The position numbers and the translations under genes are program-made. A DNA stretch of 64,000 nucleotides, taken from contig CBDETY010000003.1 in assembly GCA_965243025.1 (NCBI GenBank), forward strand, positions 4,992,001 to 5,056,000, written 5' to 3'. Source of the stretch: Candidatus Latescibacterota bacterium. GTDB taxonomy: Bacteria > Latescibacterota > UBA2968 > UBA8231. Below are positions 27,358-60,352 of this stretch, piece by piece (position 1 is the stretch's first letter; each line of letters begins with the position of its first letter). A model generated the notes under the pieces. That model was given only the letters and a program-made list of their open reading frames with translations. It was not told the origin of the DNA and did no database searches.

Positions 27358-27404
27358 CCACATTATCTCCTGCTGTCTACCAGACGGAACACAAGATATT
27401 GTGG
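27358..27404. promoter_or_regulatory. Tandem NrdR boxes
   Basis: ACACAAGATATTGTGG (27389-27404) plus a degenerate CCACATTATCTCCTGC 31 bp away, upstream of nrdJ. Confidence 0.75.
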
Positions 27405-27414
27405 AAACGCTTCG

Positions 27415-27444
27415 AATATACAGCCCTTGATTCTGGCGTGTCAA
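27415..27444 (-). promoter_or_regulatory. Sigma70 promoter of nrdJ
   Basis: TTGACA-N18-TATATT immediately upstream of the NrdR box. Confidence 0.7.
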
Positions 27445-27609
27445 GGAATTTCAAGGGACTGGGGATCGAGCTTCCGAGGGGTTCGAGGAGGCTCGGAAAA
27501 CGCCGGATTCAACCGGGGTGATGCCTGACGGGGCCGCTGTTCTGTTTTCACGGGCAGGGCAGGCGTCGTTGCGGCCCCGCCGCGTACCGGCCGGAGGGAT
27601 GCCGCCTTC

Positions 27610-28065
27610 TCAGGGGGCCGGTGAGAGCTGCTCCAACTCGCGGACGAAATCGCTCCTGTCCCTGAATTGCCGATAGACCGACGCAAACCGGACATAAGCC
27701 ACCTCGTTCAACCTGCGCAACGCCTCCATGACCAACTCACCAACCTGAATGCTTGGAACCTCTTTCTCGGCAAGGTTTCCCAACTCGCTTTCGACCTGGT
27801 CGACGAGCTCTTCGATCTGATCGCTGGAGACAGGTGTCTTGTAGCAGGCGAGTTGGATTTTTCCGAGGAGTTTGCCACGGTCGAACGGTTCCCGACTGCC
27901 GTCGCGTTTGATGATGGTCAGCGGTGCGTGTTCGATGTATTCGTAGGTCGTGAACCGCTGATTGCAGTTGACGCATTCCCGGCGTCTGCGGATGGCCTGG
28001 CCATCCCGGCACGACCTCGAGTCAACCACGCGGTCGTCCTGATGATCGCAAAACGGGCAACGCAT
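27610..28065 (-). CDS. nrdR: Transcriptional repressor NrdR
   Basis: MRCPFC, VVDSR, IRRRREC..C..RFTTYE, ATP cone, AYVRFASVY. Confidence 0.98.
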   Translation of the reverse strand: MRCPFCDHQDDRVVDSRSCRDGQAIRRRRECVNCNQRFTTYEYIEHAPLTIIKRDGSREPFDRGKLLGKIQLACYKTPVSSDQIEELVDQVESELGNLAEKEVPSIQVGELVMEALRRLNEVAYVRFASVYRQFRDRSDFVRELEQLSPAP

Positions 28066-28249
28066 GTGCAACCTCCCGAACACCTCGTTGGGGTGCGCGA
28101 GGTGTCGTCATTCGGGGATGTGTGTCCCTACTGGCGGGGAGATGCTTGGAGGGATCCCGGTGGTTTCGAAAATCGATGCATCGAGAGCACCTCCGAGATA
28201 AAAATACTAAATGGCAGCAGTGGTCGCGTGGTCAGGTGCTGCCAAAGGC

Positions 28250-28936
28250 TCAATTGAGGCGGAATTTGAACGGGAGACTGACCCAGACCTTGACTGGTTT
28301 GTCGTTCTGGAGGGCAGGTGTAAACTCAGTCTTCATGGCGGCCGCCTTGGCGGCTTCGTGAAAGATTTCGTTGCCGACTACCTGCCCGATCGCCTCGACC
28401 TTTCCGTCTTTACCGATCAGGACGGTAACTGTTACCGAGCCCTCGATACCGGCCTTTCGGGCGATCACGGGATATTCGGGTTCGACCTGCTTCTTGCGCT
28501 TCGGTTTTTTCTCGACCTTCCAAAGGTCGACGATCTCCTCTTCCTCTTCTTCAACCTCTATGGTGGGAAGCTCCTCGAACTCGGGCGGGGGTGGCAAGTC
28601 GTCGAAAAGGTCGAGTTCGGTGGTTTCGATAGTAACGTCGTCAGGAATGTCTTCGCTGTCGGTGGGAATCGGGACGACCGGTCGTGGCGGGGGTGGCGGA
28701 CGCCGCTCCTGGCGGGTTTCCGGAATCTGCTCCAGTTCGATAATGACCGGCGCTTGCGGTTTTTCGTAGGCTTCGACTTCGAAGGACGGAAAGACGATGA
28801 ACAGCAGCGCGTGAGCTGCAGCCGAGGCCGCAACCGAGAGCCAGAAGGCCTTGGGATAGGTCTGCCGGAGATCGGCCTCCGGGGCTTTTCGACGCGGCAT
28901 TTTCCAGGGCCGCTGGGGGATGCCGGGGCTGGTCAT
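28250..28936 (-). CDS. tonB: Energy transducer TonB
   Basis: TM with SxxxH, Pro/Glu-rich linker, YP..A...GIEG.V TonB_C domain; ATGA overlap with exbD. Confidence 0.92.
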   Translation of the reverse strand: MTSPGIPQRPWKMPRRKAPEADLRQTYPKAFWLSVAASAAAHALLFIVFPSFEVEAYEKPQAPVIIELEQIPETRQERRPPPPPRPVVPIPTDSEDIPDDVTIETTELDLFDDLPPPPEFEELPTIEVEEEEEEIVDLWKVEKKPKRKKQVEPEYPVIARKAGIEGSVTVTVLIGKDGKVEAIGQVVGNEIFHEAAKAAAMKTEFTPALQNDKPVKVWVSLPFKFRLN

Positions 28937-29352
28937 GGTTGCGGCTTCCTCTCCCGGTCGGTGGCGAAGTTGACGCGCAGCGCTTCGACCCTGCGCAGCT
29001 CCTGAAGGACATCCGAAATGACACCGAACTCGGCCTCGCCGTCTCCTTTGATGGAAATGATAAGCCGGGGATTCGCCATCAATTTGGAGTGGACGAGCTG
29101 CCCCACATGTTCGAGCAGAACCGTTTGGTCGTCGATATTGACTGAACCCGTCTTGCTTACCCAAACACTTGTTACGTGCCTTCGCATCTCGAGTTTTTCG
29201 ACACTTTGAGCATCAGGCAGTTCGACCGGGATGCCGCGGTAGCGGACGAACACCGTCGAAACCATGAAGAAGACCAGCAACAGAAAAGAGATGTCCGCCA
29301 TGGAAGCAGTCGGGATCACGCTTGCGACCTTGGCTTTGCGGTTGAACTTCAC
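28933..29352 (-). CDS. exbD: Biopolymer transporter ExbD
   Basis: PTASMADISFLLLVFFMV transmembrane motif with conserved Asp. Confidence 0.92.
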   Translation of the reverse strand: MKFNRKAKVASVIPTASMADISFLLLVFFMVSTVFVRYRGIPVELPDAQSVEKLEMRRHVTSVWVSKTGSVNIDDQTVLLEHVGQLVHSKLMANPRLIISIKGDGEAEFGVISDVLQELRRVEALRVNFATDRERKPQP

Positions 29353-29762
29353 TGCTCCGGCTCCGCGATCGAGATGCGGGTGGCACCCGCCAGCTTGAGT
29401 TCGTCGAGGACGTCGACAAACATTCGATACGTGGCACCACGTTCCGCTTTGAGCGAAATGATCAATTTGTCGTTTGCGGCGAGACGGCTCTGAATCTGGC
29501 TTCGGAGGTCACCAAACGAGACCAGGGTCAGGTCTTCGTTCTCGAAGAAAGCGATTTCGTCGCGCTCGTTGATCCAGACGTTGCAGATGTTTTTCTGCTT
29601 GATCTCCTTGCTCTCGCCCAAGGGCGGCAGATGCAGCGACAACCCCTTGTCCTGGTTCATCGTCGTCGTCACAAGAAAGAAGACGATGAGGAGGAAGGCG
29701 ATATCCGCCATCGAGGCGGTAGGTATCTCCGGGGGGACTCTGTGCCCTCGTTTCCAGTTCAT
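29349..29762 (-). CDS. exbD: Biopolymer transporter ExbD
   Basis: PTASMADIAFLLIVFFLV transmembrane motif. Confidence 0.92.
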   Translation of the reverse strand: MNWKRGHRVPPEIPTASMADIAFLLIVFFLVTTTMNQDKGLSLHLPPLGESKEIKQKNICNVWINERDEIAFFENEDLTLVSFGDLRSQIQSRLAANDKLIISLKAERGATYRMFVDVLDELKLAGATRISIAEPEQ

Positions 29763-29810
29763 CCGTGCGGCCCGTCCTTGAGCGGCATCATCGCCGTCTG
29801 TTGAGAGGCG

Positions 29811-30425
29811 TCAGTCCCCCTGGCCGGTATCCGCCAGCAGATCGATGAATCCAGCCGTGTGCTCCTGCATGTCGGCGATGATGCGGTCGATCCTGGAAGC
29901 GAAAAAGTTGTGAAGGAACTGGATGATGATACCGACGATGAGACCGGACGCCGTAGTGATGAGCGCCTCCGAAATTCCGCCGGCGACCATCGACGGTTCG
30001 ACATCACCGGCCCTCTCGATGGCCTGAAACGCGGAGATCATCCCGCTGACGGTTCCGAGGAAGCCGATCATGGGGGCCAGGTTGGCAACCGTGGAGAGCC
30101 AGACCATTCCTCGTTCGAGAAAGGCCATCTCCACCGCCCCGGCATTGTCGATCGCTTTTTCAACGTGATCGATGCCGCGGTGCATGCGCAGCAAGCCGGC
30201 GTGTATGACCGAGGCGACCGGGCCCCGCGTTTCCGAGCAGATCCGCGCCGCCTCGTCGGGCCCCCCGGACCGCAGCGCATCCTCAAGGCTCTGGAAGAAC
30301 GAGTTTGCGTCGATACCTGCCCGGGTCAGGTTGATCATTCTTTCGATGGCGATGGCGATCCCCAGCACCAGAAGCACCACCAGCGGATACATCGCCCACC
30401 CACCATCCAGAAATAGGTCCCACAT
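29811..30425 (-). CDS. exbB: MotA/TolQ/ExbB proton channel
   Basis: APMIGFLGTVSGMI and GISEALITTA.GL motifs. Confidence 0.93.
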   Translation of the reverse strand: MWDLFLDGGWAMYPLVVLLVLGIAIAIERMINLTRAGIDANSFFQSLEDALRSGGPDEAARICSETRGPVASVIHAGLLRMHRGIDHVEKAIDNAGAVEMAFLERGMVWLSTVANLAPMIGFLGTVSGMISAFQAIERAGDVEPSMVAGGISEALITTASGLIVGIIIQFLHNFFASRIDRIIADMQEHTAGFIDLLADTGQGD

Positions 30426-30472
30426 AATCTCTCCTCAGCTTGGGGCCGGCGTCGGCCCCGTTTGGGGGCTGA

Positions 30473-31690
30473 TCAGCCCCCCGTTTGGTCTTCTTCGTCA
30501 CCTCCGAAGAATTCCCGTTTCAGTTTCTCTTCTTCAGTTTCAGGCGGTCGCAGCTGCCAGATGCGCTGTTGGGCGATTTTTTCCCACTCGGGATCCTGTC
30601 GCGACCGTTCGAAGGCGGCAATCGCCGCATCTTCGTCTCCCTGCAATACCAACAGCTCTCCCTGAAGAAGCTGCAGGTGGCCGTGCTTCCCGTTGACCGC
30701 CAGGCCCCGGCGCAGCCAGGTCGAGGCAGCTTTCAGGTCCTTTCCCCTCAGGTGGAGCTCCACCAGTGTAGCCAATGGCCCCAGATCATGCGGTTGGGCC
30801 TCGACCATTCCCTCGAGCCCTTCCAGCTGCTGGGGCAGGTCGCCGGCTTCGGCAGCGACCGCAGCCATGCGGTCGAAGTAGGAGTAACTGCTGAGCGAGT
30901 CGAGGCGCACAAGCTTTCTGAGCGTCTCGTAAGCCCCGGGGCGGTCGCCGCTGCCGGTCTGCAATTCCAGCCTGCGGTTGAGGATTTCCACAGTGGAAGG
31001 CCCCGCCTCCGATGCCGGGGACGACAAGGCGCGCAAACTCCAGGAAAGAGCCTGCTCTGTGTCGCCATTGGCTTCGTGCATCTGGGAGAGCAGGTCGAAG
31101 ATCTGGCGCGCGTCGGCGCCGGTGTCGGAGGCAAGCCCCTCGTAGTGGGATATGGCGGCCTTGTGGTTTCCCTGAATGCGATGGAGGTCGGCGATCTCGC
31201 GCCTGAACTGGCGGTACTTGGAGACAGAGGGCTTGAGGCTGAGAACGGGCTCCAGGAAAACCCAGGCCGAATCGGCGTCTTCTTCCTGGCGCAGGTACAG
31301 TTGCGTCAACAGCACATTGCTGTTGACGTGCAGGGAGTCGAGGGAGACACAGATGAGCAGGTGGCGTTTTGCCGCTTCCGTATCTCCCTTTTTTGCGAGG
31401 AGTTTGCCGCTGAAATAGTGGGCTTTGAGATCGTCGGGCTTGTAGCTGATTACCTGCCCGTAGTACCGCAGCGCCTCGTCGGTCTGTTTCTTTTCGCGGG
31501 CGGTCTTTGCGAGAAAACGGTATTTCCGAAGGCTGTCCGCGGTTGCCGGTTCGTCCGCCTGCGCCCCTGTTACGGGCGCGGACAGTCCCAAGGCGATCAG
31601 GGCGAGAGGGATCGCCCGTGAAACGGACAGGGGAACTTTCGGAAGCCTGCGCGATATTCCTGCGAAAGCTTTGCGTGCCGGCAAATTCAT
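30473..31690 (-). CDS. Exported TPR-repeat protein
   Basis: Signal peptide (AQA cleavage) followed by repeated TPR-like helices. Confidence 0.8.
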   Translation of the reverse strand: MNLPARKAFAGISRRLPKVPLSVSRAIPLALIALGLSAPVTGAQADEPATADSLRKYRFLAKTAREKKQTDEALRYYGQVISYKPDDLKAHYFSGKLLAKKGDTEAAKRHLLICVSLDSLHVNSNVLLTQLYLRQEEDADSAWVFLEPVLSLKPSVSKYRQFRREIADLHRIQGNHKAAISHYEGLASDTGADARQIFDLLSQMHEANGDTEQALSWSLRALSSPASEAGPSTVEILNRRLELQTGSGDRPGAYETLRKLVRLDSLSSYSYFDRMAAVAAEAGDLPQQLEGLEGMVEAQPHDLGPLATLVELHLRGKDLKAASTWLRRGLAVNGKHGHLQLLQGELLVLQGDEDAAIAAFERSRQDPEWEKIAQQRIWQLRPPETEEEKLKREFFGGDEEDQTGG

Positions 31691-31701
31691 TTTGGATGAG
31701 G

Positions 31702-31730
31702 AATATATCGCCGCTCTATGGAGCAGTAAA
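31702..31730 (-). promoter_or_regulatory. Putative sigma70 promoter of the TPR-exbBDD-tonB cluster
   Basis: TTTACT-N17-TATATT ending 11 bp before the ATG at 31690. Confidence 0.5.
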
Positions 31731-31764
31731 CGGGCGAAAGGTTACGATTGAACGACTTCGGTTG

Positions 31765-33687
31765 TCAAATCCGGTATCCCCCTCCAGGCTCGCCGACCAG
31801 GGAGACCGCAGCCCATACCAGGCGCATCAGAAGGTCGCCGAGGATCAACCCCATGAAGAACGGACGCAGGCGGCGGTACTGCGCGGCTCCCCCGTATCGG
31901 ACTACGAGCAATTTTACTGCCCAACCGACCAGCGCCGACCCCCAGATCAGATAACCGATTCCGGTTCCGTAGACGAACCCGGCGGGGTGAAACGGAAGTT
32001 GCGTGAACAGGACGCGCAGGAATGAGAGAACCGCCGTTACGGCGAATCCCACGGCCACCGCGCCCATCCTGATCAGGTCGGGACCGGCCGGGCGCGTTCC
32101 AGCCTCGTAGTACAGGTAGTGGTAGTAGCGTCCGAGGCGTGCGGCCGGCCGGGCACCGCCGTGGCGGTCGAGGGAAAAAATCCCGGGGTCGTACACCAGT
32201 TCCAGCATCGACCAGAAACCGCAGACAAGGCCCGCGAGTATTCCGACCGCCACTGCTGCACCGATCTGGCCGGCGCCGGAACCCAGGGATCCGGCCATTT
32301 TCCAACCTTCGACATGCAGCATCGTCACCGCGGCGATCCCCGAGTAGCTCAGGAGGTTGAGAAACGCAAAAGCGACGTACTCGGAGGGGCTGAAAACACC
32401 GGGCCCGGTCCCCCAGGCGAAGAAGAGAAGGTTGGGCACGAGAAAGTAGACGCTGATTACCGGCAGACCGGCGTCCAGGCGCAGGCGAGCCATTCCGATG
32501 GCCGTCAGCAGCAACAGGAGGACGAAAATCGTCCCCAGTGGCAGCGAGAGGCCGGCCGCCTTCCCCCAGGCAAGAAGGCCGGCGCTTCCTGCCGACAGAC
32601 AGAAAAACCCCCAGCGCTCCCTTCCCCGGCCGCACAGGGCCCGACGCCAGGCATCCGCAAGCGCCTTGCGCGCCGCCCAAAGGCTCAGTACGGCGAGGCA
32701 GAGCAGGCCGCCGCGGGCCTGGGAATGCAGGTGAGGGGTGAAGTTGGGCCATTCCCGCCACTGTCCACCGAGCCCGATGAAAACCCCATGGTCGCCGCTG
32801 CGTCCGATCAGCTCCGCGGCGAGGAGTTGGGCCCGGGTCAGCAGATAAAAAAACCAGGTGCTGAAAGCGACTTCGACCGACAGCAGATAGGCGATCCCGA
32901 CCAGGAACGGGGTAACGGTGAATTCGAAGCGGGAGGTGAACGGAGCAAGGGCGGCCCACGGCTTGTCAGTCAGCACATCCGCCAGGTTGAAGGACAGCGG
33001 GATTTCCGCCGGGAAAAGGTGGTAGTGGTGGAGTCCGTTCAGCCCGTAGATCAGGGCCGGCACCGCGATGCCGGCCCCGAGGGTCTTGCTGCGCAGCAGT
33101 TCCCGACCGTTGAGAGCGAGAGTCACGGGCACTTCTGCCAGTGGGAGCCGCAGCCGTTCCTCCTCGAGCCAGCGCTTGCGCAGAAGGGTCATGCATCCAC
33201 ACATGGCGACCAGGAAGGCGACGGCGAGCGCCGCCCATGCCATCAGCGGCAGCGCCCAGGCTGCCCAGGGAACCTCGGGGCGGCCCTCAAAGAACCCCTC
33301 GACCGCGTCGCTGCCTTCCCTGCCCGGCACCATCCAGTCCGGGATCAGTTTGAGAAAGGGGTAGTAGCCGCCGGAAGGGTCGCTGAACTGAAAAAACCCG
33401 GTGACAAGGCCGGGAAGCAGGTACTGGGTGTACCCGCCGGCCGCCAGGGGCAGGCCGACCGCGGTCATCAGGTAACACCCGAGCAGCTCGCCCTCCTTGA
33501 ACTGGAGCCAGCCGGCCCCGAGGCGGCGCAGGAGAACGAGGAGCAGCAACAGGGCAATCGGCAGGGCCGGCAGCGGTCCATGAGTGAGAGAAGGTCCCCC
33601 GTATACGAGGTCTACTCGCTGAATCGACCAGGATCCGAGGAAGATGGCGGTGACAGCCAGAGCGACGGAACGGGTTGTGACCGGCAT
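31765..33687 (-). CDS. Polytopic membrane protein, DUF6785/DUF6784-like (OPT-related)
   Basis: Many TM segments; W..WALPL..W, ERLRLPLA, PFHPAGF, VVRYGG..YRRLRPFFMGLILG motifs; family name recalled, not searched. Confidence 0.75.
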   Translation of the reverse strand: MPVTTRSVALAVTAIFLGSWSIQRVDLVYGGPSLTHGPLPALPIALLLLLVLLRRLGAGWLQFKEGELLGCYLMTAVGLPLAAGGYTQYLLPGLVTGFFQFSDPSGGYYPFLKLIPDWMVPGREGSDAVEGFFEGRPEVPWAAWALPLMAWAALAVAFLVAMCGCMTLLRKRWLEEERLRLPLAEVPVTLALNGRELLRSKTLGAGIAVPALIYGLNGLHHYHLFPAEIPLSFNLADVLTDKPWAALAPFTSRFEFTVTPFLVGIAYLLSVEVAFSTWFFYLLTRAQLLAAELIGRSGDHGVFIGLGGQWREWPNFTPHLHSQARGGLLCLAVLSLWAARKALADAWRRALCGRGRERWGFFCLSAGSAGLLAWGKAAGLSLPLGTIFVLLLLLTAIGMARLRLDAGLPVISVYFLVPNLLFFAWGTGPGVFSPSEYVAFAFLNLLSYSGIAAVTMLHVEGWKMAGSLGSGAGQIGAAVAVGILAGLVCGFWSMLELVYDPGIFSLDRHGGARPAARLGRYYHYLYYEAGTRPAGPDLIRMGAVAVGFAVTAVLSFLRVLFTQLPFHPAGFVYGTGIGYLIWGSALVGWAVKLLVVRYGGAAQYRRLRPFFMGLILGDLLMRLVWAAVSLVGEPGGGYRI

Positions 33688-33695
33688 CCGGTTTT

Positions 33696-35684
33696 TCAGT
33701 ATGGCAGCTGGGCTACGGAACGGACGATCAGGACGATGGCGACGGCGGCCATGCCTATCAGACCGTTGCCGCAGGCGAAGCCGGCCAGCAACACCGGCGC
33801 CCAGCGGCGCCAGCGCTCCCTCCCGAAGCGGCGCTCGAAGTAGTAGCGGCCCAGGCATGCCCCCAGCATTTCCGGGATGAGCAGATGCGGCATCGATTGC
33901 AGGCCGCGGATGAATCCGTATACCAGGGCGAGAGGGAACCCCCACACGCTGGCGGCGATGAGGGCGATCCCGGAGAGGGAGAAGGCCCCTGCGACCCACC
34001 CGGAATGCACGACATCCTGCAGCTCGAGACCTCCTTCGGTGGTAAAGGAGAACCACAGAAACTGCCGCATCGCGAACAGGTGCCAGTACTTCTGGGCAAA
34101 AGGAAAGACGACCGACGGAATCGGCTGCAGTTTCCAGATCAGAGCCCAGAACAGGAAGCCGCACCCCAACGCCACCGGGAGAATCAGCAGCTCCGCCTTG
34201 AGGATGCTGGTGAACCGGGTCCCGGTCAGTTCCACCTCGCGGAACAGCTGGGCCCGCCGTCCGTGATCGCTGTAGGGGATTGGCGCGAACCAGATGTCGA
34301 CCCCTCGATAGCCGCTGAGCAGAAAGGCTCCCTCGCGCACGAGGGGAATCCCGGCGGTCTGTCCTGTAAGCCCGATCATGCGGGCGTTGACGTAGGAAAT
34401 CAGGGGGGTCAGCAGGAAGGCGAAGGCGAGCAGGAAAAGCAGGGGAAAGCTGTCATCGGCAAGCAGTTGCCGGCACAACAGGACGTACCCGGCGGCTGCA
34501 AGCACGTAAGCGACCGCCGCCGCCCACAGGGGAAAGTCCCCCCTTCCCCGAGGCGGCTGCGCGCCCTTTCCAGTTCCTTTGCCCTTGCGCCCGAACGAGG
34601 TCGCTGCCTGGGCGATTCCCGCTGCCGCCACCGCGGCCCCGGTGCCGATATACACGCTCAGCCAGACGTCGAGATCGTTGGAGAAATGCGTCGCGATTGC
34701 ATCCATCCCGGGCTGCCAGCGTTCCAGCAGACCCGCCTGGTACAGGATCGGGTTGGCGGCCGTCTGAAAGGCCGCCGCGGCGAACGACCCGGCGACAACC
34801 CAGAAGGGGAGGACGAATCCCGCGAGGACAAGCCCGAGGTCGGTGCCGATTCCGAGGGTGGCCGCGGGGAGCTGGTTCTCGAAGTCCCGGGTGAAATCGA
34901 TCCACGGTATGGGCAGCAGCTCGAGTGGACGCGCGGCGACGAGACCGGAAAGGGCCGGCAGCCCGATGAAGACCGTTCCGAACAGCAGCCCGATTCCCAT
35001 GCCGATACAGAACAGGCGCCAGCGCCAGCTCGCGTGCGGCTGATCGCTTTCGGCCAGGGCGGTGGCCCCCTGCGCCGCCACCGCCGCCAGCGGGAACGGC
35101 ATGCGCTCGGCGTCCGAGGTGACGCGAAAAAGCAGGTAGCCGAGACCGAACCACTCGGCGCGGGCAAGCACCTGCCCGCCGACCAGGAGTGCCGCGGGGA
35201 GGAGCCAGTCCCGGTGCAGGAAGTCCCGTTCGACAATGGCGGGAGAATCGGCGGGAGGGGAGACCCAGGCGGGGATCTGCCCGGCGATGCCGAGCGCCTG
35301 CCCGACCTGGGACTGGACGAGGTACTGATGCCAGATCAGGCTGGCGAAAGGTCCCCCGGCGAGCATGACGCCGCCGATGACGTGCGTCAGTCCCCCGGCG
35401 ATGTAGTACAGGACGTAGATCTCCTGCCGGCCGAGCGGGGCGAAGGAGCGCCGCGCCACCTCTGCAAACAGGATGATCGTCACCCACTCGGCAGCCGGCC
35501 CCAGGCTGGAACCGGCGATCAGGCCCATGTAGATGGCCCCGGGCATCATCAGGAAGCCAATGAAGAATGCCCCCAGGATCGTACGCCCCGTGAAGCCGTC
35601 TGCGAACTCCCGGGGAGTTGCAAGCAGATCGCGGTACCCCGCCCGAACCTGTCCGCTGTTGCCTCCGGGGGTAGCGGGTTTCAT
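33696..35684 (-). CDS. OPT/YSL-like polytopic 'peptide transporter'
   Basis: N-terminal GFTGRTILGA, AERMPFPLA (OPT-like E.L.FP), many TM segments; ATGA overlap with the upstream gene. Confidence 0.75.
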   Translation of the reverse strand: MKPATPGGNSGQVRAGYRDLLATPREFADGFTGRTILGAFFIGFLMMPGAIYMGLIAGSSLGPAAEWVTIILFAEVARRSFAPLGRQEIYVLYYIAGGLTHVIGGVMLAGGPFASLIWHQYLVQSQVGQALGIAGQIPAWVSPPADSPAIVERDFLHRDWLLPAALLVGGQVLARAEWFGLGYLLFRVTSDAERMPFPLAAVAAQGATALAESDQPHASWRWRLFCIGMGIGLLFGTVFIGLPALSGLVAARPLELLPIPWIDFTRDFENQLPAATLGIGTDLGLVLAGFVLPFWVVAGSFAAAAFQTAANPILYQAGLLERWQPGMDAIATHFSNDLDVWLSVYIGTGAAVAAAGIAQAATSFGRKGKGTGKGAQPPRGRGDFPLWAAAVAYVLAAAGYVLLCRQLLADDSFPLLFLLAFAFLLTPLISYVNARMIGLTGQTAGIPLVREGAFLLSGYRGVDIWFAPIPYSDHGRRAQLFREVELTGTRFTSILKAELLILPVALGCGFLFWALIWKLQPIPSVVFPFAQKYWHLFAMRQFLWFSFTTEGGLELQDVVHSGWVAGAFSLSGIALIAASVWGFPLALVYGFIRGLQSMPHLLIPEMLGACLGRYYFERRFGRERWRRWAPVLLAGFACGNGLIGMAAVAIVLIVRSVAQLPY

Positions 35685-38600
35685 GTCGCAGGCTCGAGGT
35701 AGGCGCCCCGATGCTCGGCCGGGAGGTTGCGCCAGACGAGAAACTGCTTGCGAATCGAGTCGACGAATATCCGGTTTGCCCGCCACCAGGTGGCCTCGTT
35801 CCCCGAGAGCCGCTCGATGGTCGTTTCAAGGGTGAAAAACCGATGGTCGACATCGGGCGCCAGAACCAGCCTGACCGTTTGCGAAACCCCCTGGTCGAAG
35901 GGTGCCAGCCAGACCCGGGCATCGATTTCTCCCGCCGATTTCTCCGCGACGTCTTCGGCGTAGAACAGGGCTCCCGTCGATTGATCGTCGAACGCCCCGA
36001 GGTATTCGCGCAGGAACCGCGCGAAGCCGTGGGCTTCTTTGCGGTTGAGGGAAAACGGCAGCGACAGCATCAGGAGGTCTCCCCGAGGCCGCGGCAAGGT
36101 CCAGCTGCGCTCGATTCCCGGGGTGCAGATCCGGGAGGCCATGAGCGCCGGGTACGCCGCCGAGGCGAGGACGACGGCCATCACCACCGCCACGGTCGCG
36201 ACTGCCGACAGGGACGAGTAGTTGACGGTCAGGCCTGGAAGCAGGTGGAAGGTGCCGGCCTGGGCGATTGCGAACCCGAGAAGCGATCCCAGCACCGCGC
36301 TCAGCAGACAGAAAGCCCCGGCTTCGGCGAGGAAGAGCCCGGCCACGTGTCCCGGGGCGAGCCCGACGGCATTCAGAGTCCCTATCTCGGGCAGGCGCTC
36401 GTACACGCTTCCGAGCATGGTGTTGAAGGCGATCAGGGCGGCGATCAACAGCGGGATCCAGACACCGCGGCGGCCGCTGAAGACACGTACTCCGACGGTG
36501 TTGATGCGAAAAGTGCCGTCGTCGAGGCGGGCGAAGAGGTTGAGCTCGGAGGTCAGGGCCATTTCGTCGATATCCCTGCGAGCCGCCGCCTGGTTCTCGA
36601 AGAGGACGGCAATCGAGGCGACGCGGGACCACTCCCCCCAGCGGGCCACCGCGTCGCCGGAAAGGAAGAGAACCTGACTGCTGGACAAGTGGACGAAGGC
36701 CGGCTGCAGGCCACCGCGATCGATGCCGACCCGTTGCTCGTCCGGCTGGTGAACCTCGACATCGAGGGGAGTCAACGGGTCGCCGGAGATATCGCGAAGC
36801 TGGTCGTAGCGCTCGGGATCGACAATGCCCACGACCGGGTAGTCGGCGCCGAAGACGCGGACGGTGGCGGTCCCGAGGTTTCCCGCTTGCACGCCGAGGA
36901 GATCCGCCTGGTTCGCGGGCAGCACACAGGCGGTTTCACCTGCTGCCATCCAGCGCCCCGAGAGCAGGGCGTCGTCGATCGGGTTGACCAGGTTTTCGAA
37001 AGCCGATACGCCTGCCACCGCCTCGACGCGGCTGCTGCCGTTGCGGCCCCGCACCTGCACCGGCTTCAGGTACCACCTGCGCGCGGCTACCGTGCCGCTG
37101 GAAAAACGCAGGGCGAGGTGGTCGATCACGGCGGCCTCGATGGCGGCGAACTCCGGCATGCGCAGCATCAGGGCAGGAGGCACCGTACCGCCCGGAAGGT
37201 GGTCGGAGACCGGGGTGCGGTTGAAGCGATGACCTGCCCGCACCGAAGTGAACGAGGCCAGGGTGCAGGTCAGCAGGACGAGTGTGGAGGCAGTGAGGGC
37301 CGTTCTCCAGGGCCGCCGGCGCATCTGCGCGACACCCAGCGCGAATGACCGCCAGAGTATGCCGCCCCTCGCCGAGCCCGCGCGGTGGAGTGCGGACGCA
37401 GGGGAACCGGCCAGCCGCAGTTGCGCGTTGAGGCGGGTTATCCCCAGACCGATGACCGCCAGGCTGAGGGACAGAATGGCGAACCCGAGCAGGATCAGCG
37501 AGGGGTAGAGCGACAGCTCGAAGGAGGGATGCGAAAACCGAAGCACCGCGAAAGCGGCCGCAAAAAGGGCGACCGAGCCGGCGACCTGGCCGCGAATTCC
37601 GCGGCTTGCCAATAGAAGGCGTTCGCCAAGTACGGCAAAGGGAATAAGCAGAAACAGGACGAAGACGACTCCCTGTACCGCCCCGGCGGAAAGGCTCTGC
37701 GTCGCTCCGTAGGCCTGCGAAGCGAGCGCCCAGGCGCGGCGGCTTTCTCCCGTGCAAGCGGTGTTGCGGCCCTCTTCGCAGGCGCTGGCCGCTCTTCCAA
37801 GAGTTTCTTGGGCAGCGTCGTTCAAGTCCGAAAGAAGGGAGCTGGCGATGCCGTGCGATTCCAGTTGCTCCAGTCGCTCGCGGTTGAGCCCGTGGGTGTC
37901 CCGGGCGAGGTGCAAGGCCGTTGCCGGCAAGCGCGAAGCGAACGCGGAATACCCGGAACCGGTTGCCGCATCCGGGCTGCCGTTGAGCAGCAGACCGCGG
38001 CGTCCGAGGCCGAAGCGACCCCCGGAAAGGATCGCCTTGAGGTCCGTTCCGGGTGGGACGAACAGAACCGCAGTGCTCTCGGTGTCCGGTCCGACGAGGT
38101 GGTGGTAACCGTCGCGGGCGACTTGGGAAGCGGTCGGTGGGAGGCAATAGCCGAAGCTCGCCGGCTCCGCCTCCTTTCCGGACTCGAGGATCCGGACGTG
38201 GTCGAGGACCGCCAGCCGGCGCGGGTCTACGAGGTCGAAAAGGGTCACCCCTGCGCAAGGGAAAGTCACCAGGGTGCATTCCTTCTCGAGATCGTCCATG
38301 AGGACCTCGGCGGGGTACTTGCCGGTCCCGAGCGGGCCGCGATCGAGAGCGGAGATTACCCTTCCGGACGCCGGATCCACCTGGTAAGCTTCCAGTCGGG
38401 TGCCCTTGAGGTAGAGCGTCCGGGCCTCGAGACCGGTCAAGGTGAAGCGGCCGTCCTTCCCGGTCATCGCCAGCGGATCCGCGTGCACGCCCATGGTCGT
38501 CTTGCCGAAAGTGCGCGCGCGAACAAGGGCTCCCTCGACCGGTTCGTCAGGCTGATAACTCTGCGGGCCCCACCTCACCACGCGTCCCTCGAGCCGGCCG

Positions 38601-40114
38601 AAGGAATCGCTTCCCCCCTCGGGGGACATGTCGATATCGGCGTCGATCAGGTGTTGGATCAGGGCTACGATGAAACGGGTCTGCGCCGCCAGGCCGGGGT
38701 ACTCCAGCATCCCCGGGAGATCTCCCGGGGAATCGAAACGGGCGCGCTCGTCGGCTGCCGAAACCAGTGTCATCCCCAGCATGCCCGACAGAGACGCCAC
38801 GGCCCCGGAGACCGGAACCCGTTCGGGAAGGGCACCGAGAAGCCGGCGCCGGCGCAAGGGCTTCAAAGCCCCGCCCAGAATCATCTCCCCCTGAAGGTTG
38901 CGCTCCTCGTAAGTCTCGGTAAACGAGGTGATCGGGTCGTAGATCGAGGGGGGGATCCGGCGCACCCGGTACGGTGGGCCGGCCTGTACCAGTGCCAGCT
39001 GCCGGCTGCGGGAACTCAGGTCCAGGCCGATGTAGCACGCGATCTCCAGACCGCAAAGAAGGCTTCTCAACTGCCGGTCCTGCGAGCCCGCGTGCGAGCT
39101 CGGGCTGCTCTCTTCTCCGGCCGTGCCGCAGGAGCGCAGGAAATCGATGAAATCCCGCATTCCGGCAAGTGCCTGAAAGTGGCCTGCCGTCGCCACGAGT
39201 ACGGCGGTGCGCCGCGGGGGGTGGGCGGCCAGGGCCGCTGCCAGCTCCATCCAGGCGGCGGCGCCGCTCGCCTGATCGGCTCCCGGTGCCAGGGCCGGTA
39301 CCGCGGAGATGGCGTCGTAGTACGAGCCGACAACAACCGCTTCCCGGCGGAGGGCGGGATCGATGCCCGGAATCACGGCGACCACGGTTCGGGCGGGCGC
39401 GTTGCGCCAGACCATGCTCCCGGAGATGACGGCCCTGACCGGCTGCGCCGGAGACCGGGTATCGGACAGCACGTTCCGAAGTTTCCCGCTCGCAGCTGCC
39501 GGGGCGTAGAATCGCGGCAAGTCCGCTGGGGTCGTCAGGTATTTTTGCGAGCTCTCCCAACGACGGCCGGGTCCAGGACCGGAGGGGGCCAGGAATATTA
39601 CCGCCTCTGCGCCGAGGTCGAAGGCGCGGACCCAGCGGCGGCCGCAGTCGTATTCGAAGACGGCGATGGCCCCCCGCATCGGGGATCCGTCCAACTCGGA
39701 AGGGTTGCCGCTGCCGGCGTAGACCAGGGGACCCGCGATTCCGGGTGGGGGGACGGTGGAGGTGCGCACCAGGTTGGGCCACATGTGCTGGAGCGCGTAC
39801 GCGCTCGAACCCGGCACCCCCGGGAAGCGCAGGGCGGCTCCCCGATCCAGGGGGACCGGAGTGTGGAACCGGCGCGCGTGGACTTCGCGCAGACCCAGGT
39901 TTTCCAGGTATTCGGTCAGGAATTGCGCCGCTGCGAAGGCGCCGGGATATCCGGTAACCCTCGAGTCCATGGCCGCCAGCTGCTCGATACGGTACTGCAG
40001 CCTCGCTTCCAGGTCCTCTTCCGACAGTTCCCCCATTATTGCCCCGGCGCTGAGAAACAGGGTGGCAAAGGCTGTCCATCCCAGCAATTGACAGGGGGCG
40101 TTGATGAGACTCAT
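35681..40114 (-). CDS. Large fusion: M28 peptidase-like/PA domain + MacB/FtsX-like permease (1477 aa)
   Basis: SRVTGYPG and PGAD.ASG..WMEL (M28 fold); RRRPWRTALT TM and SVYER..EIGTLNAVG..FLAEA (FtsX domain). Confidence 0.85.
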   Translation of the reverse strand: MSLINAPCQLLGWTAFATLFLSAGAIMGELSEEDLEARLQYRIEQLAAMDSRVTGYPGAFAAAQFLTEYLENLGLREVHARRFHTPVPLDRGAALRFPGVPGSSAYALQHMWPNLVRTSTVPPPGIAGPLVYAGSGNPSELDGSPMRGAIAVFEYDCGRRWVRAFDLGAEAVIFLAPSGPGPGRRWESSQKYLTTPADLPRFYAPAAASGKLRNVLSDTRSPAQPVRAVISGSMVWRNAPARTVVAVIPGIDPALRREAVVVGSYYDAISAVPALAPGADQASGAAAWMELAAALAAHPPRRTAVLVATAGHFQALAGMRDFIDFLRSCGTAGEESSPSSHAGSQDRQLRSLLCGLEIACYIGLDLSSRSRQLALVQAGPPYRVRRIPPSIYDPITSFTETYEERNLQGEMILGGALKPLRRRRLLGALPERVPVSGAVASLSGMLGMTLVSAADERARFDSPGDLPGMLEYPGLAAQTRFIVALIQHLIDADIDMSPEGGSDSFGRLEGRVVRWGPQSYQPDEPVEGALVRARTFGKTTMGVHADPLAMTGKDGRFTLTGLEARTLYLKGTRLEAYQVDPASGRVISALDRGPLGTGKYPAEVLMDDLEKECTLVTFPCAGVTLFDLVDPRRLAVLDHVRILESGKEAEPASFGYCLPPTASQVARDGYHHLVGPDTESTAVLFVPPGTDLKAILSGGRFGLGRRGLLLNGSPDAATGSGYSAFASRLPATALHLARDTHGLNRERLEQLESHGIASSLLSDLNDAAQETLGRAASACEEGRNTACTGESRRAWALASQAYGATQSLSAGAVQGVVFVLFLLIPFAVLGERLLLASRGIRGQVAGSVALFAAAFAVLRFSHPSFELSLYPSLILLGFAILSLSLAVIGLGITRLNAQLRLAGSPASALHRAGSARGGILWRSFALGVAQMRRRPWRTALTASTLVLLTCTLASFTSVRAGHRFNRTPVSDHLPGGTVPPALMLRMPEFAAIEAAVIDHLALRFSSGTVAARRWYLKPVQVRGRNGSSRVEAVAGVSAFENLVNPIDDALLSGRWMAAGETACVLPANQADLLGVQAGNLGTATVRVFGADYPVVGIVDPERYDQLRDISGDPLTPLDVEVHQPDEQRVGIDRGGLQPAFVHLSSSQVLFLSGDAVARWGEWSRVASIAVLFENQAAARRDIDEMALTSELNLFARLDDGTFRINTVGVRVFSGRRGVWIPLLIAALIAFNTMLGSVYERLPEIGTLNAVGLAPGHVAGLFLAEAGAFCLLSAVLGSLLGFAIAQAGTFHLLPGLTVNYSSLSAVATVAVVMAVVLASAAYPALMASRICTPGIERSWTLPRPRGDLLMLSLPFSLNRKEAHGFARFLREYLGAFDDQSTGALFYAEDVAEKSAGEIDARVWLAPFDQGVSQTVRLVLAPDVDHRFFTLETTIERLSGNEATWWRANRIFVDSIRKQFLVWRNLPAEHRGAYLEPAT

Positions 40115-40208
40115 CTTCTTGTTTTACAAATAGCTATGGCAATTTGCAGGCAGCCGGAACGAGCTTTCCTCGAACACGCACAGACGCATCGGTGTCGGTG
40201 AGAGTATC

Positions 40209-40859
40209 ATGGAATCATCTGCGGACAGACCTTCGCCTGGCAGAAGACCGGCGTTGAAGCTCGTTGAAAAGGCGGTGCCCGAAATCGGCATGGACGAGGA
40301 GGAGCGCATCGGCCGCATAGTGGCCGGGGATGGTTCGGCTTTCGCTGAACTCGTCCGGGAATTTTATCCGCTGGCATATGGGTTGGCTCACCGGGTACTT
40401 CTGGATCCCGAAGACGCGGAGGAAGTCGTTCAGGACGCATTCGTGAAGATTCACGCGGCGCTGATCAGCTTCCGCGGCCATTCCTCGCTCAAAACGTGGA
40501 TTCTGCGGATCGTCCTGCGCCTCAGTCTCAATCGCCGCCGCGACCGCTCCCGCAGCAATTGGTACCGTCTGGGATTGCACCGCGGAAGCGACGATCTGTT
40601 CAACCCTCCGGATCCTCGAGGGTTTTCCGCCAATCCCGAAGCGGAGTGCATTTCTGCCGAAACCCGTCGCGTGGTGCTCAGGTTGGTGGACGAACTTCCC
40701 GAGGGACTGCGTGAAACCCTGCTGTTGAACAGCATGGAAGAACTGTCTTACGAAGAGATTGCCCGGGTGCTGGGTGTCCCGATCGGGACTGTCAGCTCCC
40801 GGATTTACAGCGCGCGCCGCCGGCTGCTTCCGAAGCTGCGCCGGCACGGGCTCGTCTGA
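40209..40859 (+). CDS. ECF (group 4) RNA polymerase sigma factor
   Basis: DAEEVVQDAF region 2, SLKTWILRI, LSYEEIA..LGVPIGTVSSRI region 4. Confidence 0.95.
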   Translation: MESSADRPSPGRRPALKLVEKAVPEIGMDEEERIGRIVAGDGSAFAELVREFYPLAYGLAHRVLLDPEDAEEVVQDAFVKIHAALISFRGHSSLKTWILRIVLRLSLNRRRDRSRSNWYRLGLHRGSDDLFNPPDPRGFSANPEAECISAETRRVVLRLVDELPEGLRETLLLNSMEELSYEEIARVLGVPIGTVSSRIYSARRRLLPKLRRHGLV

Positions 40860-40891
40860 ACCGGCGCGCACCTGGCCTGGAGAGGCAACGA

Positions 40892-41263
40892 ATGTCGATA
40901 CTGCCGTGGGACAAGAAGAAACTGGAAACGCCGCTTTCCGCCTACATCGACGGCGAGCTCGGCAGCGAGGAACAGGCCGAAATCGGAGAACGGGTTGTCT
41001 TCGAGCCACAGGCGCGGGAGCTACTCGACCTGTTTCGCCGTGCCAAAGGCCTGGTGGACCGGGCCGCAATCCCCGACCGGGTCCCGGCGCGGGAAATGCC
41101 CGAACATCTTTGGGAACAGGTTGGCGTGGAAGACGGGTTTGATCCGGGCCCGCAACGAACCAGCAGGTGGCGGACGCGTAATTCTGCAGCCATCCTCTCG
41201 GTCGGTCTGCTGGTCACTGCCGGGGTAGCGCTGCTCGGCCTGCGCCGCCGGGGATTGGTTTGA
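40892..41263 (+). CDS. Membrane-anchored anti-sigma factor
   Basis: LSAYIDGEL anti-sigma domain start, single C-terminal TM, directly downstream of the ECF sigma. Confidence 0.8.
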   Translation: MSILPWDKKKLETPLSAYIDGELGSEEQAEIGERVVFEPQARELLDLFRRAKGLVDRAAIPDRVPAREMPEHLWEQVGVEDGFDPGPQRTSRWRTRNSAAILSVGLLVTAGVALLGLRRRGLV

Positions 41264-41293
41264 TCGGAATCGCCCCGTAGAGGGGAGAGAAAT

Positions 41294-42163
41294 GTGAGCT
41301 GGTTCGATAAAATGAAGAGCGGGATTCTGACCCGCATCCGCCGCGAGATTCCGGAGGGTATCTGGTCGAAATGCGAGCAATGCGGCGAGACAACCTACAA
41401 CAATGCTCTCGAGCGGAGCGGCTGGATCTGCCCCGGCTGCGGAAATCACCTTCACATAGGCTTCGACAAATACGTCGAACTGTTGCTCGACCGCGGGACA
41501 GTCGAGCAGATCAATGCCGGCATCTCCACCGCCGATCCGCTTCGCTTTCGCGATCACCGCCGCTACACCGACCGGATCCGGGACGGGCGCAAGGCCAGCA
41601 ACCTCAACGAAGCGGTGTGGACCGGAACAGGTTTGCTCGACGGCCACCAGGTTGCTTTGGGAATCATGGATACCCGCTACATTCTCGGAAGCATGGGCGG
41701 GGCCACGGGTGAGAAAGTCGCGCGCTTGATAGATCGCGCCCTCGTCGACCGGCGGACCTTGATCATCGTTTGCCAGTCGGGCGGAGCCCGCATGCAGGAG
41801 AGCACCTACTCGCTGATGCAGATGGCCAAAATCAGCTCCCGGCTGCGCCGTCTCTCGGATGCCGGCCTGCTTTACGTGTCGGTGTTGACCGACCCGACGT
41901 ACGGGGGAGTGACCGCCAGCTTCGCCATGCTCGGGGATGTCATCCTCGCCGAGCCGGGGGCCCGCGTCGGGTTCGCAGGACCCTCCGTCATCAAGCAGTT
42001 TCTCGGAGTCGACGAGCTGCCGGACGGTTTCCAGATAGCCGAGAACGTACTGAGGCACGGGTTCGTCGATCGGGTGGTGCGCCGGGATGAACTGGTCCCC
42101 ACTCTGTCCCGGCTGATGGCCCTGCTTGCTCCCGAGCCCGCCCGAGCCGCCGTCGCCGGCTGA
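41294..42163 (+). CDS. accD: Acetyl-CoA carboxylase carboxyltransferase beta subunit
   Basis: WSKCEQC..CPGC Zn finger, GSMG, SGGARMQE, PTYGGVTASF, GFAG. Confidence 0.97.
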   Translation: MSWFDKMKSGILTRIRREIPEGIWSKCEQCGETTYNNALERSGWICPGCGNHLHIGFDKYVELLLDRGTVEQINAGISTADPLRFRDHRRYTDRIRDGRKASNLNEAVWTGTGLLDGHQVALGIMDTRYILGSMGGATGEKVARLIDRALVDRRTLIIVCQSGGARMQESTYSLMQMAKISSRLRRLSDAGLLYVSVLTDPTYGGVTASFAMLGDVILAEPGARVGFAGPSVIKQFLGVDELPDGFQIAENVLRHGFVDRVVRRDELVPTLSRLMALLAPEPARAAVAG

Positions 42164-60000: not shown

Positions 60001-60352
60001 TCCACGGGTGGTCGCCGCGGATCTCCCAGTCGAGGGCGGAAGCCCAGATGTAGACGGTGTTGCTGTAGTTGTCCGCGGCCCCGTTGCCGAAGTCGCTGTT
60101 GTCGAGAACGACAATGTGAATCGGAGAGTAATCGTCGTAATACCCGTACGCGGCAGCCAGCGGCGCGAATACCTCTTCGGCGACCTCTGCCACCCGCCGC
60201 GCCGTTCCCTCGGCGCCGGGAAAGTAGCTGATGACGTAGTGGTCGGTCTGAAAGCTGGTCAGCTGGGCTTCGGCAGGTGGCGCCAAGCCGAGAACCAGCG
60301 TGGGAATCGCCGCGTAAATCGCTGTTTTTCCGGTGGTTTTCAGAATTCGCAA
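57002..60352 (-). CDS. Zn-metallopeptidase (HExxH) + PD40/TolB beta-propeller + Omp85-like barrel protein
   Basis: Signal peptide, THEIAH...WWVEGIA gluzincin, SPDG repeats, YLGG...LSGY lid-like motif and C-terminal beta strands. Confidence 0.85.
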   Translation of the reverse strand: MRILKTTGKTAIYAAIPTLVLGLAPPAEAQLTSFQTDHYVISYFPGAEGTARRVAEVAEEVFAPLAAAYGYYDDYSPIHIVVLDNSDFGNGAADNYSNTVYIWASALDWEIRGDHPWIKNVLTHEIAHVMTLDKARKRWPFRIALFSVSRFDSNPDISFNFPLYYLNTPAWWVEGIAQLAPAQFGWDTWDSHRDMLLRMAVLEDDLSTLNEMGGLSHRAGGYRAEQVYNQGFGLLTYTAATYGTEKVEELQDHVGSLSFDPAIRKVLGISADQLYDDWVRFMEDQYGQQVEEIVAEGFFEGNELGDVNEGVIDYHPSYSPDGRKLAYITSQDRDYRIPYVAIYDFATRKKKVLKEFVDTRISWFPDSDKILFLRNKSGYNDFFVYDIEEDEERRISARLRARDPNVSPDGERIAFVRLRDGNHSLCLIDADGTDLVQLTNHNDRTQIYAPRWSPDGEWILFSIFSGEDRDIAMMRADSPPLPKKTGLRPPKDDTPDSLKVFPDSLAYPAADTSGFTPLLASSADERDPYWLPDGSGFVFSCDRTGIFNIYQYTLETGEVRQLTNVLGGAFSPTVAGDGRVTYASYHANNFDLYEFDLDGPGERIVHWDPLADRDYQTVVRGPKLSEDYSVFRYRGRRVLDVIPLFQVGPTFVGNTFGLNQISGGGQVSVRETLGGDVFVFWGVLGKNFRESTDLNTDFGLYAERRLLPAVGNNRTFNPTLWGGWRRREVDWIIRGSSVEVFADTVASTIYPAPVDTANLLIPNATQHIYEGFSRKDLFKDVFQMWSLGVDLPISRRQQLTGLYTNRNYDENWLLHRYRQRLEIFVIQDSVDITGTLPSSLTSLDTTTVTPDDHYSFYDDLDFYTSNDLTLAWNYRRVKPTADRMINATGRSMALIYRYMKANLADSLAFTVDDGMPRDMLIPAKRPFTVNEYVGAYTERVGLPFRNTLTWEVVAAYRNLSVKPYTVDGGFFEGRFYWPLRYYLGGRNFLSGYPYFVRSGSKLLYGRFAYGFPLFRRLDMGFLNFNFTKVYAELFAETGAVGNFRTLKLDDFDTDSFLSDVGGEVRMELYTFYRIPMRAFFQVAHPLNRDRVEREPDEPKIDKWRYYFGLGLVGRGL

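Follow-up and report, generated by a model that had tools for sequence, protein, structure and literature searches.

A 64,000-nucleotide stretch of the genome of Candidatus Latescibacterota bacterium (C3:4992001-5056000, where C3 is contig CBDETY010000003.1; 61-69% G+C; source genome 6.8 Mb), here called the window, carries three adjacent genes, termed P1, P2 and P3, that belong to a real, conserved and undescribed membrane system built from known kinds of parts. P1 joins a periplasmic head resembling M28 aminopeptidases to a MacB/FtsX-type membrane module, and P2 and P3 are related to OPT permeases. We consider it moderately probable that the three genes form a 'head plus permease' module, in which a type VII ATP-binding cassette (ABC) mechanotransducer of the MacB/FtsX type is coupled to OPT-fold secondary permeases. 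An ATP motor most likely belongs to the machine; in this genome it would be encoded in trans, and the feature 'no ATPase', which stood in the headline of a preliminary description of this DNA, is a matter of gene placement in the Latescibacterota lineage of the source genome. A full-text literature search for P1-type FtsX/M28 proteins, for DUF6785/DUF6784 and for type VII ABC systems with OPT proteins found no description of the system, in agreement with the preliminary description, whose author knew of none. Positions given without a contig or locus prefix are those of the window, in which the three genes are arranged as follows:

35681..40114, minus strand: P1, 1477 aa; M28/PA-like head, MacB/FtsX-type membrane module and small cytoplasmic tail (open reading frame, Pfam, profiles and fold searches)
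33696..35684, minus strand: P2, 662 aa; divergent permease of the OPT/Yellow-Stripe fold, with no Pfam family of its own
31765..33687, minus strand: P3, 640 aa; DUF6785 + DUF6784 membrane protein (Pfam and hhalign)

The tight linkage noted in the preliminary description is borne out by the open reading frames and their translations: the ATG of P2 overlaps the stop codon of P1 (ATGA), and the gap between P2 and P3 is 8 bp. The P1 family is present in all of the 41 relatives searched. In a survey of related loci at least 396 P1 loci were confirmed, 80 of which were kept and scanned with purpose-built hidden Markov models; the record titles of these 80 include Latescibacterota, Gemmatimonadota, Armatimonadota, Planctomycetota, Omnitrophota, Ratteibacteria, Zixiibacteriota and others. 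A locus was called well flanked if its P1 was complete and had 2.5 kb or more of sequence on each side (n=48, mostly Latescibacterota), and an OPT-like neighbour was defined as a gene of P2 type and/or DUF6785 type in the same orientation and no more than 1.5 kb away. Such a neighbour is found at 40 of the 48 well-flanked loci and at 53 of the 80 loci overall, the remainder being mostly cut by contig ends. Moreover, the order P1-P2-DUF6785-TPR(-ExbB-ExbD-ExbD) recurs in the closest orthologues (L022, L026-L029 and L035-L037). The source genome itself has seven P1 and five P2 paralogs, and six of the seven P1 paralogs lie beside an OPT-like partner (P2-like or DUF6785), one being fused to it. 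In the P1-permease fusion a single 2287-aa open reading frame contains M28, FtsX, DUF6785 and DUF6784 (L016:6835-13698; C3:562835-569698). Thus, homologues of the three genes do co-occur, and the linked loci together with the fusion support the proposal, already made in the preliminary description, that P1, P2 and P3 are parts of a single conserved membrane system of several subunits. The existence of further P1-permease fusions is suggested by long open frames in relatives (1914-2863 aa).

From its N- to its C-terminus P1 is composed of the following regions:

38615..40021, minus strand: M28 aminopeptidase-like domain with PA insert, residues ~32-500 (profile against the PDB)
37700..38614, minus strand: middle region, residues 501-805; periplasmic, ending in a long helical stalk (residues 770-805 modelled as helical)
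37412..37681, minus strand: three extra transmembrane (TM) helices, residues ~812-901, ahead of the FtsX module (helices 15-66, 71-92 and 102-132 of the AlphaFold2 (AF2) model; hydrophobic stretches)
36110..37375, minus strand: MacB/FtsX-type module, residues ~914-1335 (model residues 145-566; structure matches and HMMER alignment to MacB)
35684..36103, minus strand: conserved cytoplasmic alpha+beta tail, residues 1338-1477, which is not a nucleotide-binding domain

The membrane module resembles that of type VII ABC systems (MacB, LolCDE, FtsEX, HrtBA, YtrEF, YbbAP, BceAB; PF02687), which are regarded as ATP-driven mechanotransducers acting outward in efflux, lipoprotein release and control of wall hydrolases. 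Residues ~914-1335 of P1 share with them the four-helix FtsX topology, a MacB-like periplasmic domain between TM1 and TM2 and an ER..EIG helix between TM2 and TM3, the complete order being elbow helix, TM1, MacB-like periplasmic domain, TM2, ER..EIG helix, TM3 and TM4. Pfam FtsX (PF02687) matches residues 1222-1328 (E 4e-12, 46.7 bits versus a cut-off of 25.5), and a 51-sequence profile of residues 770-1477 matches MacB 5lil (E 1.2e-18), YtrF, LolF/C/E and FtsX. The AF2 model of the same residues (pLDDT 82, pTM 0.60) resembles MacB, LolC/E, HrtB, YtrF, YbbP and BceB (Foldseek probability 1.0), with VIA Z scores from 17.3 to 11.9 (YtrF 17.3, MacB 16.2). Its periplasmic domain between TM1 and TM2 aligns with 3ftj over 180 residues (VIA Z 13.1, root mean square deviation 3.7), and the domains of YknZ, LolC and LolE are likewise matched by VIA. 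The Pfam family PF12704 has no match in P1 itself; it is matched in the P1 relatives L088 and L091 and in the precomputed Pfam assignments of homologues. Residues R1240, I1244, G1251, L1252 and P1254 are invariant in 51 P1 sequences. The ER..EIG helix, which in MacB contacts the ATPase, is invariant or nearly so in the same 51 sequences, irrespective of whether an ATPase is encoded in cis.

In other respects P1 departs from the type VII ABC systems: it has ~800 extra periplasmic residues, three extra TM helices and a tail that is not an ATPase, and it is tied to, and sometimes fused with, OPT-fold secondary permeases. The tail (model residues 569-695) gives middling VIA Z scores of 7.3-8.5 to KA1, BamC-N and AHSA1/START-like folds; a nucleotide-binding domain is absent among its best structural neighbours, and the ESM Atlas yielded no usable match for it. 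Its invariant residues include W1338, P1341, G1345, P1405, D1407 and others.

The periplasmic head is matched by Pfam Peptidase_M28 at residues 244-316 (E 4.9e-5, 23.6 bits versus a cut-off of 21.3). When a profile of 16 sequences covering the first ~560 residues of P1 is run against the PDB, the best match is the Aneurinibacillus M28+PA aminopeptidase 2ek8 (E 3e-18); the profile also matches YwaD of B. subtilis (6hc6, E 1.7e-13) and Nicalin (7tm3, E 2.8e-9). According to this profile, the similarity to M28 enzymes spans both the peptidase core and the PA insert. The enzyme motifs are replaced in the printed alignments, where HHDS has become YYDA, GAxDDASG has become GA(D/E)QASG, GAEE has become (G/A)H, and HTPED has become D.P.D with its last His changed to Asp. 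The co-catalytic metal ligands and the catalytic Glu of the aligned enzymes, at the positions that we take to be the ligand residues of M28 enzymes, are absent from the head, which thus keeps the M28 fold without the canonical catalytic set. Since the replacement residues are themselves invariant (Y265, Y266, D267 and H312, in P1 family alignments of 11 and 16 sequences), the site looks remodelled rather than decayed. In this respect the head is unlike 2ek8 and YwaD, with which it shares core and insert; like the non-catalytic relative Nicalin, it is part of a membrane complex and not a free enzyme. Pfam gives no Ig or carboxypeptidase-regulatory-like family for P1 (E<=0.1), and neither CarboxypepD_reg nor any other family for residues 501-805 alone (E<=1e-4). 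Relatives of P1 are named 'FtsX-like permease family protein', 'M28 family peptidase' or 'hypothetical protein' in the databases. Of the domains that the preliminary description had read into P1, we therefore recover the M28 aminopeptidase-like fold with its PA insert (by Pfam and by the profile matches to 2ek8 and 6hc6) and the TM block, the MacB-type periplasmic domain, the FtsX TM domain and the cytoplasmic tail (by the AF2 model with Foldseek and VIA), while the Ig/carboxypeptidase-regulatory-like segment is left unconfirmed.

OPT transporters are understood as stand-alone proton symporters. P2 matches no family in Pfam (E<=0.1) or NCBIfam, P3 matches nothing in NCBIfam, and PF03169 (OPT) is matched by neither protein at E<=0.1. 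Unlike the known OPT/Yellow-Stripe-like proteins, P2, P3 and the rest of the genome stay below the PF03169 model at E<=0.001. The same model is matched by 28 of 65 aligned members of the P2 family (best E 1.3e-17). The AF2 model of P2 (pLDDT 92.4, pTM 0.93) matches barley YS1 (HvYS1; 7wst/7wsr) over its whole length (E 9e-12, probability 1.00, TM-score 0.60-0.67), after which the next structural match drops to E 7e-3. Judged by this model, P2 has the OPT/Yellow-Stripe fold, and its closest solved relative in fold, HvYS1, is an iron-phytosiderophore transporter. The P2 profile run against PDB sequences finds aquaporin alone (E 0.24). The P2 family is large, with 3776 relatives at E<=0.001 among 8000 scored candidates and 956 representative clusters at E<=0.001; the top 120 relatives are 61-97% identical to P2 (63-82% below the top match), and some relatives bear the NCBI name 'peptide transporter'.

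P3 is matched by DUF6785 (PF20581; E 1.5e-92, 311.1 bits) and DUF6784 (PF20580; E 5.7e-25, 87.9 bits), both over cut-off. BLASTP detects no relationship between P2 and P3 (best E 0.25), and a shallow hhalign comparison gives a probability of 92 over 192 columns only. A deep hhalign comparison of the P2 family with 48 DUF6785 sequences (P3 and 47 paralogs from the same genome) aligns the two end to end (probability 98.6, E 9e-16, 570 columns). P3 is, by this profile comparison, a distant homologue of P2, which would place it distantly in the OPT superfamily. The preliminary description was thus right to call both proteins OPT-like, P2 on account of the OPT Pfam matches of its relatives and the YS1 fold, P3 on account of hhalign. 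We know of no OPT protein that partners an FtsX-type protein, and the literature search was likewise empty on this point.

The question of the ATPase can be approached from phyla in which a motor is encoded in cis. None of the 80 ABC_tran matches of the source genome lies inside the window, as had been stated, and the match nearest to the window's P1 is 95.7 kb away. In the Armatimonadota loci L041, L045, L052 and L069, by contrast, P1 and P2 share a cluster with a 300-362-aa protein, a PqqD-like protein, a 226-240-aa FtsX protein (termed mini-FtsX) and a LolD/MacB-type ATPase. The full set in other phyla consists of a DUF6785-type permease, P1, a P2-type permease, a ~340-360-aa protein, a PqqD-like protein, mini-FtsX and a LolD/MacB-type ATPase, and with its ATPase and second FtsX protein in the same cluster it is like a type VII ABC system. 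Ten further Planctomycetota/Armatimonadota loci all contain P1, a P2-type gene and mini-FtsX, and nine of them the ATPase (in L173 mini-FtsX is present and the ATPase not shown); the 343-aa-type protein and the PqqD-like protein are separate genes in six of the ten, and three (L176-L178) have two strong ATPase matches. Among 121 sampled Armatimonadota genomes P1 and mini-FtsX occur together in 97, P1 only in 1, mini-FtsX only in 0 and neither in 23. Among 151 sampled Planctomycetota genomes 24 have both, 127 have neither, and none is discordant. By a hand count of the listed rows, mini-FtsX lies within ~10 kb of P1 on the same contig in 52 of the 97 Armatimonadota and 14 of the 24 Planctomycetota genomes. 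That P1 and mini-FtsX are absent together and frequently adjacent in two phyla is difficult to account for unless the two are functionally linked.

The source genome has a counterpart of this motor pair, ~570 kb from the module in the window:

C3:4455966-4457492: mini-FtsX (234 aa) and ATPase (262 aa) side by side, the candidate ATPase at C3:4456704-4457492

Compared with the genes of the Armatimonadota clusters, this mini-FtsX is 37-42% and the ATPase 65-68% identical, each being the best match. Mini-FtsX has exactly one match in 41/41 relatives and in 5/5 distant P1 carriers. As no ATPase is linked to any P1 paralog in the genome, we infer that P1 is served in trans. Taken together, the cis motor in other phyla, the shared presence pattern and the orthologous pair mean that 'no ATPase' holds for the window and probably not for the machine. 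The preliminary description considered two power sources: a distant ATPase is supported by the cis clusters and the co-occurrence, and powering by the OPT-like subunits is not needed. The presumed partner of P1 would differ from known type VII ABC proteins in being a minimal 234-aa FtsX, and the arrangement in the source genome would differ in that the ATPase is unlinked and the heads are multiplied to seven.

Several other candidates and gene copies deserve mention. The motor pair might be the FtsEX cell-division pair, whose co-occurrence with P1 would be trivial; its absence from 23/121 and 127/151 genomes argues against this, as does the finding that mini-FtsX/ATPase is missing exactly where P1 is missing (with one P1-only exception) and sits inside P1 clusters. 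The pair could nevertheless have an additional, second role. ABC ATPases beside P1 in L065, L072, L088, L094 and L095 were not taken as P1 motors, since that of L088 is, by Pfam, part of a BPD_transp_1/TOBE importer, with a PhyH gene between it and P1, and gene calls show the same gene order in the other four loci. An orphan LolD/MacB-type ATPase of 250 aa (C3:1351305-1352057; L182:8305-9057) lies between uvrB and a short-chain dehydrogenase gene, with no permease nearby, and is 58-60% identical to the Armatimonadota cluster ATPase; given the two ATPase matches in L176-L178, it could be a second motor subunit. The only counterparts of the PqqD-like and 343-aa proteins in the genome are found behind another P1/P2-like pair (L018:5663-7040; C3:2769663-2771040). 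With these genes, the motor pair and the P1 modules lying apart, the components of the complete system occupy at least three separate sites in the genome.

In the mechanism that we propose, the single-copy mini-FtsX and its ATPase would constitute the motor. Mini-FtsX would pair with P1 as a heterodimer, the two making up the membrane subunits of a type VII ABC motor, and the one motor pair may drive all seven P1 paralogs in trans. The ATP-driven motion of the FtsX pair would be transmitted to the periplasmic pseudo-peptidase head, which would bind an extracytoplasmic oligomer (peptide, glycopeptide or similar) and hand it over to P2/P3, and these would bring it into the cell using the proton gradient. 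Uptake is the direction that we favour, and a peptide or glycoconjugate may be the substrate; direction and substrate are the weakest steps of the proposal. An analogy, though no homology, exists to group II energy-coupling factor transporters, where a single energising module is shared among several substrate-specific components: here a single-copy motor pair stands against seven P1/permease modules, the sharing being suggested by gene counts alone. A more elaborate version of the proposal, a modular hybrid importer with one shared ATP motor in trans and seven interchangeable pseudo-peptidase heads, each with its own OPT-fold proton-driven permease(s), is tentative and seems to us somewhat doubtful.

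If the hybrid importer existed, it would be the first type VII ABC system to supply the cell with substrates, as well as the first chimera of this sort between a primary and a secondary transporter, and sponge-associated Latescibacterota may take up oligomeric nutrients mainly through it. A conserved machine uniting type VII ABC and OPT proteins, found across Latescibacterota, Armatimonadota, Planctomycetota, Omnitrophota, Zixibacteria and other uncultured lineages, would represent a novel architecture for transport. A function would follow for DUF6785, DUF6784 and the unnamed P2 family, and the separation of motor from heads leads to a clear prediction on shared energising modules that can be tested. 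What our analysis adds to the preliminary description is the contrast in distance between FtsX and ATPase genes, a named motor pair in trans, the two presence/absence tests and a link to ExbD pairs.

The genes that flank the module are the following:

30473..31690, minus strand: TPR protein, 74 bp 3' of P3 (Pfam TPR families)
29811-30425, minus strand: ExbB (Pfam)
29349-29762, minus strand: ExbD, first copy (Pfam)
28933-29352, minus strand: ExbD, second copy (Pfam)
28250-29164, minus strand: TonB open reading frame, true start not fixed (Pfam)
40209-40859, plus strand: extracytoplasmic function (ECF) sigma factor, divergent from P1 and 94 bp off its start (Pfam and NCBIfam)
40892-41263, plus strand: putative zf-HC2 anti-sigma factor (Pfam and NCBIfam)

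The TPR gene is kept beside P3 orthologues in L022, L026-L029, L035 and L037, and an ECF sigma gene is also divergently upstream of P1 in L025, L028, L029, L033, L035, L036 and L037. All three ExbD-ExbD tandem pairs of the genome, which account for six of its seven ExbD matches, lie 0.4-6 kb from a P1 paralog:

window 28933-29762: ExbD-ExbD pair near the window's P1
L019:12082-12926: ExbD-ExbD pair near a P1 paralog
L020:2741-3610: ExbD-ExbD pair near a P1 paralog

The window's TonB is the only strong TonB_C match in the genome, and none of the 29 Plug-domain receptor genes of the genome is near a P1 locus. A promoter and terminator scan of 27400-41400 was no aid in setting the operon ends, with 2 promoter-like sites versus 1.9 expected and 16 terminator-like sites versus 12.1 expected. 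The P1-P2-P3 region (32001-40000) has a G+C content of 0.66-0.68, above both flanks (0.58-0.61), and a strongly positive AT skew on the plus strand.

DUF6785, the family of P3, has 50 matches in the 6.8-Mb genome, and most copies are solitary and lie beside catabolic enzymes. At 39 further loci (e.g. L132-L170) 45 DUF6785 copies are adjoined by xylose-isomerase-like and enolase-superfamily (sugar/organic-acid) enzymes. Other neighbours are GH95/GH32/GHL10, CBM9, sulfatase, FG-GAP/ASPIC, PhyH, amidohydrolases, peptidases S15 and M3, and T9SS-tailed proteins. These surroundings fit nutrient importers, and since some 50 OPT-like copies lie beside catabolic enzymes, they may represent the main family of cytoplasmic-membrane importers through which nutrients enter this organism. 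The solitary DUF6785 genes beside catabolic enzymes thus fit import as the direction of the system.

A number of observations weigh against an ATP-driven importer composed of P1, the OPT-like permeases and the motor pair. At eight of the 48 well-flanked loci P1 has no adjacent OPT-like gene; five of these adjoin an ABC ATPase, and three have neither. The seventh P1 paralog of the source genome pairs with a 944-aa UPF0182 protein (PF03699, E 8e-288) instead of an OPT-like gene. All seven P1 paralogs are 16.6-189 kb away from the nearest ABC_tran match, whereas for the other 30 FtsX domains this distance is 0.4-6.6 kb. The motor pair lies among housekeeping genes, flanked by a GT2 glycosyltransferase gene on one side and trpE on the other, and could have another role. 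Moreover, the presence counts overstate the support, because related genomes are not independent. Finally, we know of no type VII ABC system that imports into the cytoplasm, and the PqqD-like protein, whose counterparts in other systems bind peptides in the cytoplasm, could point to export. The separation of P1 from ATPase genes is also what a machine independent of any ATPase would show, with P1 as a passive receptor or scaffold for OPT-fold permeases and its FtsX module a mere anchor or moved by the proton-driven cycle of these permeases, which corresponds to the powering by OPT-like subunits offered in the preliminary description. Such a machine would be in line with the distance of at least 16.6 kb between each of the seven paralogs and any ABC_tran match, with the finding that a MacB-type ATPase is directly adjacent at 0/48 well-flanked loci, and with the conserved cytoplasmic tail, which sits where a nucleotide-binding domain would dock; the ratio of seven heads to one motor pair is also an awkward stoichiometry for a driven machine. 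We nevertheless regard it as distinctly unlikely, as in two phyla P1 and mini-FtsX are present and absent almost in step and frequently lie next to each other, the motor pair is retained as a single copy in 41/41 relatives, and the ER..EIG helix, with which MacB contacts its ATPase, is invariant.

An ATP motor could also serve export or envelope biogenesis. The OPT-fold proteins would then move a cytoplasmic product outward, for example a PqqD-bound ribosomal peptide or a lipid-linked intermediate, and the type VII ABC part would extract it or pass it on in the periplasm, like MacB/LolCDE. All characterised type VII ABC systems known to us act outward or on periplasmic targets, a PqqD-like and a ~340-360-aa protein belong to the full gene set, the conservation of P2 is housekeeping-like (63-82% identity among the top 120 relatives), and the module adjoins the only TonB system of the genome, a TPR protein and an ECF sigma/anti-sigma pair. 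Export is nonetheless unlikely in our view: the characterised OPT/YSL transporters are, as far as is known, importers, the DUF6785 branch has grown to ~50 copies beside catabolic enzymes, as nutrient importers would, and neither precursor-peptide nor biosynthetic genes were seen beside the module in the window. The TonB genes suggest yet another role, namely that the module forms the inner-membrane part of a TonB-dependent uptake route, perhaps for a metal chelate, in which the P1 head catches the substrate once TonB-dependent receptors have passed it through the outer membrane, YSL-like permeases import it and the ECF sigma factor exerts control. P1-P2-P3 are followed by TPR-ExbB-ExbD-ExbD-TonB here and in L027-L029, L035 and L037, and the position of all three ExbD pairs near P1 paralogs, the sigma/anti-sigma pair divergent from P1 and the iron-phytosiderophore transporter as the closest solved fold to P2 point in the same direction. 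We consider this very unlikely, since 0/29 Plug-domain receptor genes are near a P1 locus, L022 and L026 lack ExbB/ExbD after the TPR gene, and no siderophore or metal-regulation genes were seen; being the only strong TonB_C match, the window's TonB probably serves all receptors, and its adjacency may be incidental.

Near-identical DNA to 27500-41500 of the window, or close variants of it, is found in sequencing runs labelled sponge metagenome and marine metagenome. One metatranscriptomic library contains contigs that are 90-99% alike on P1, P2, P3 and the TPR gene, one of which spans the P1/P2 junction (35576-35911); the contigs of this library leave 27967-30301 (ExbB/ExbD/TonB) uncovered. 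DNA can be present in libraries of this type, so that the contigs are a weak indication of expression.

The P1 paralog that pairs with the UPF0182 protein is located at L019:4150-12024 (C3:6089150-6097024), and an ExbD pair lies divergently upstream of it. Elsewhere in the window, 57002-60352 on the minus strand encodes a protein of 1116 aa that has PD40 beta-propeller repeats and matches Peptidase_MA_2 weakly. The window also carries ordinary housekeeping genes, namely those for topoisomerase I, a class II ribonucleotide reductase with NrdR, PheST, ZapA/ZapB, RNase Y, exonuclease VII and RecN.

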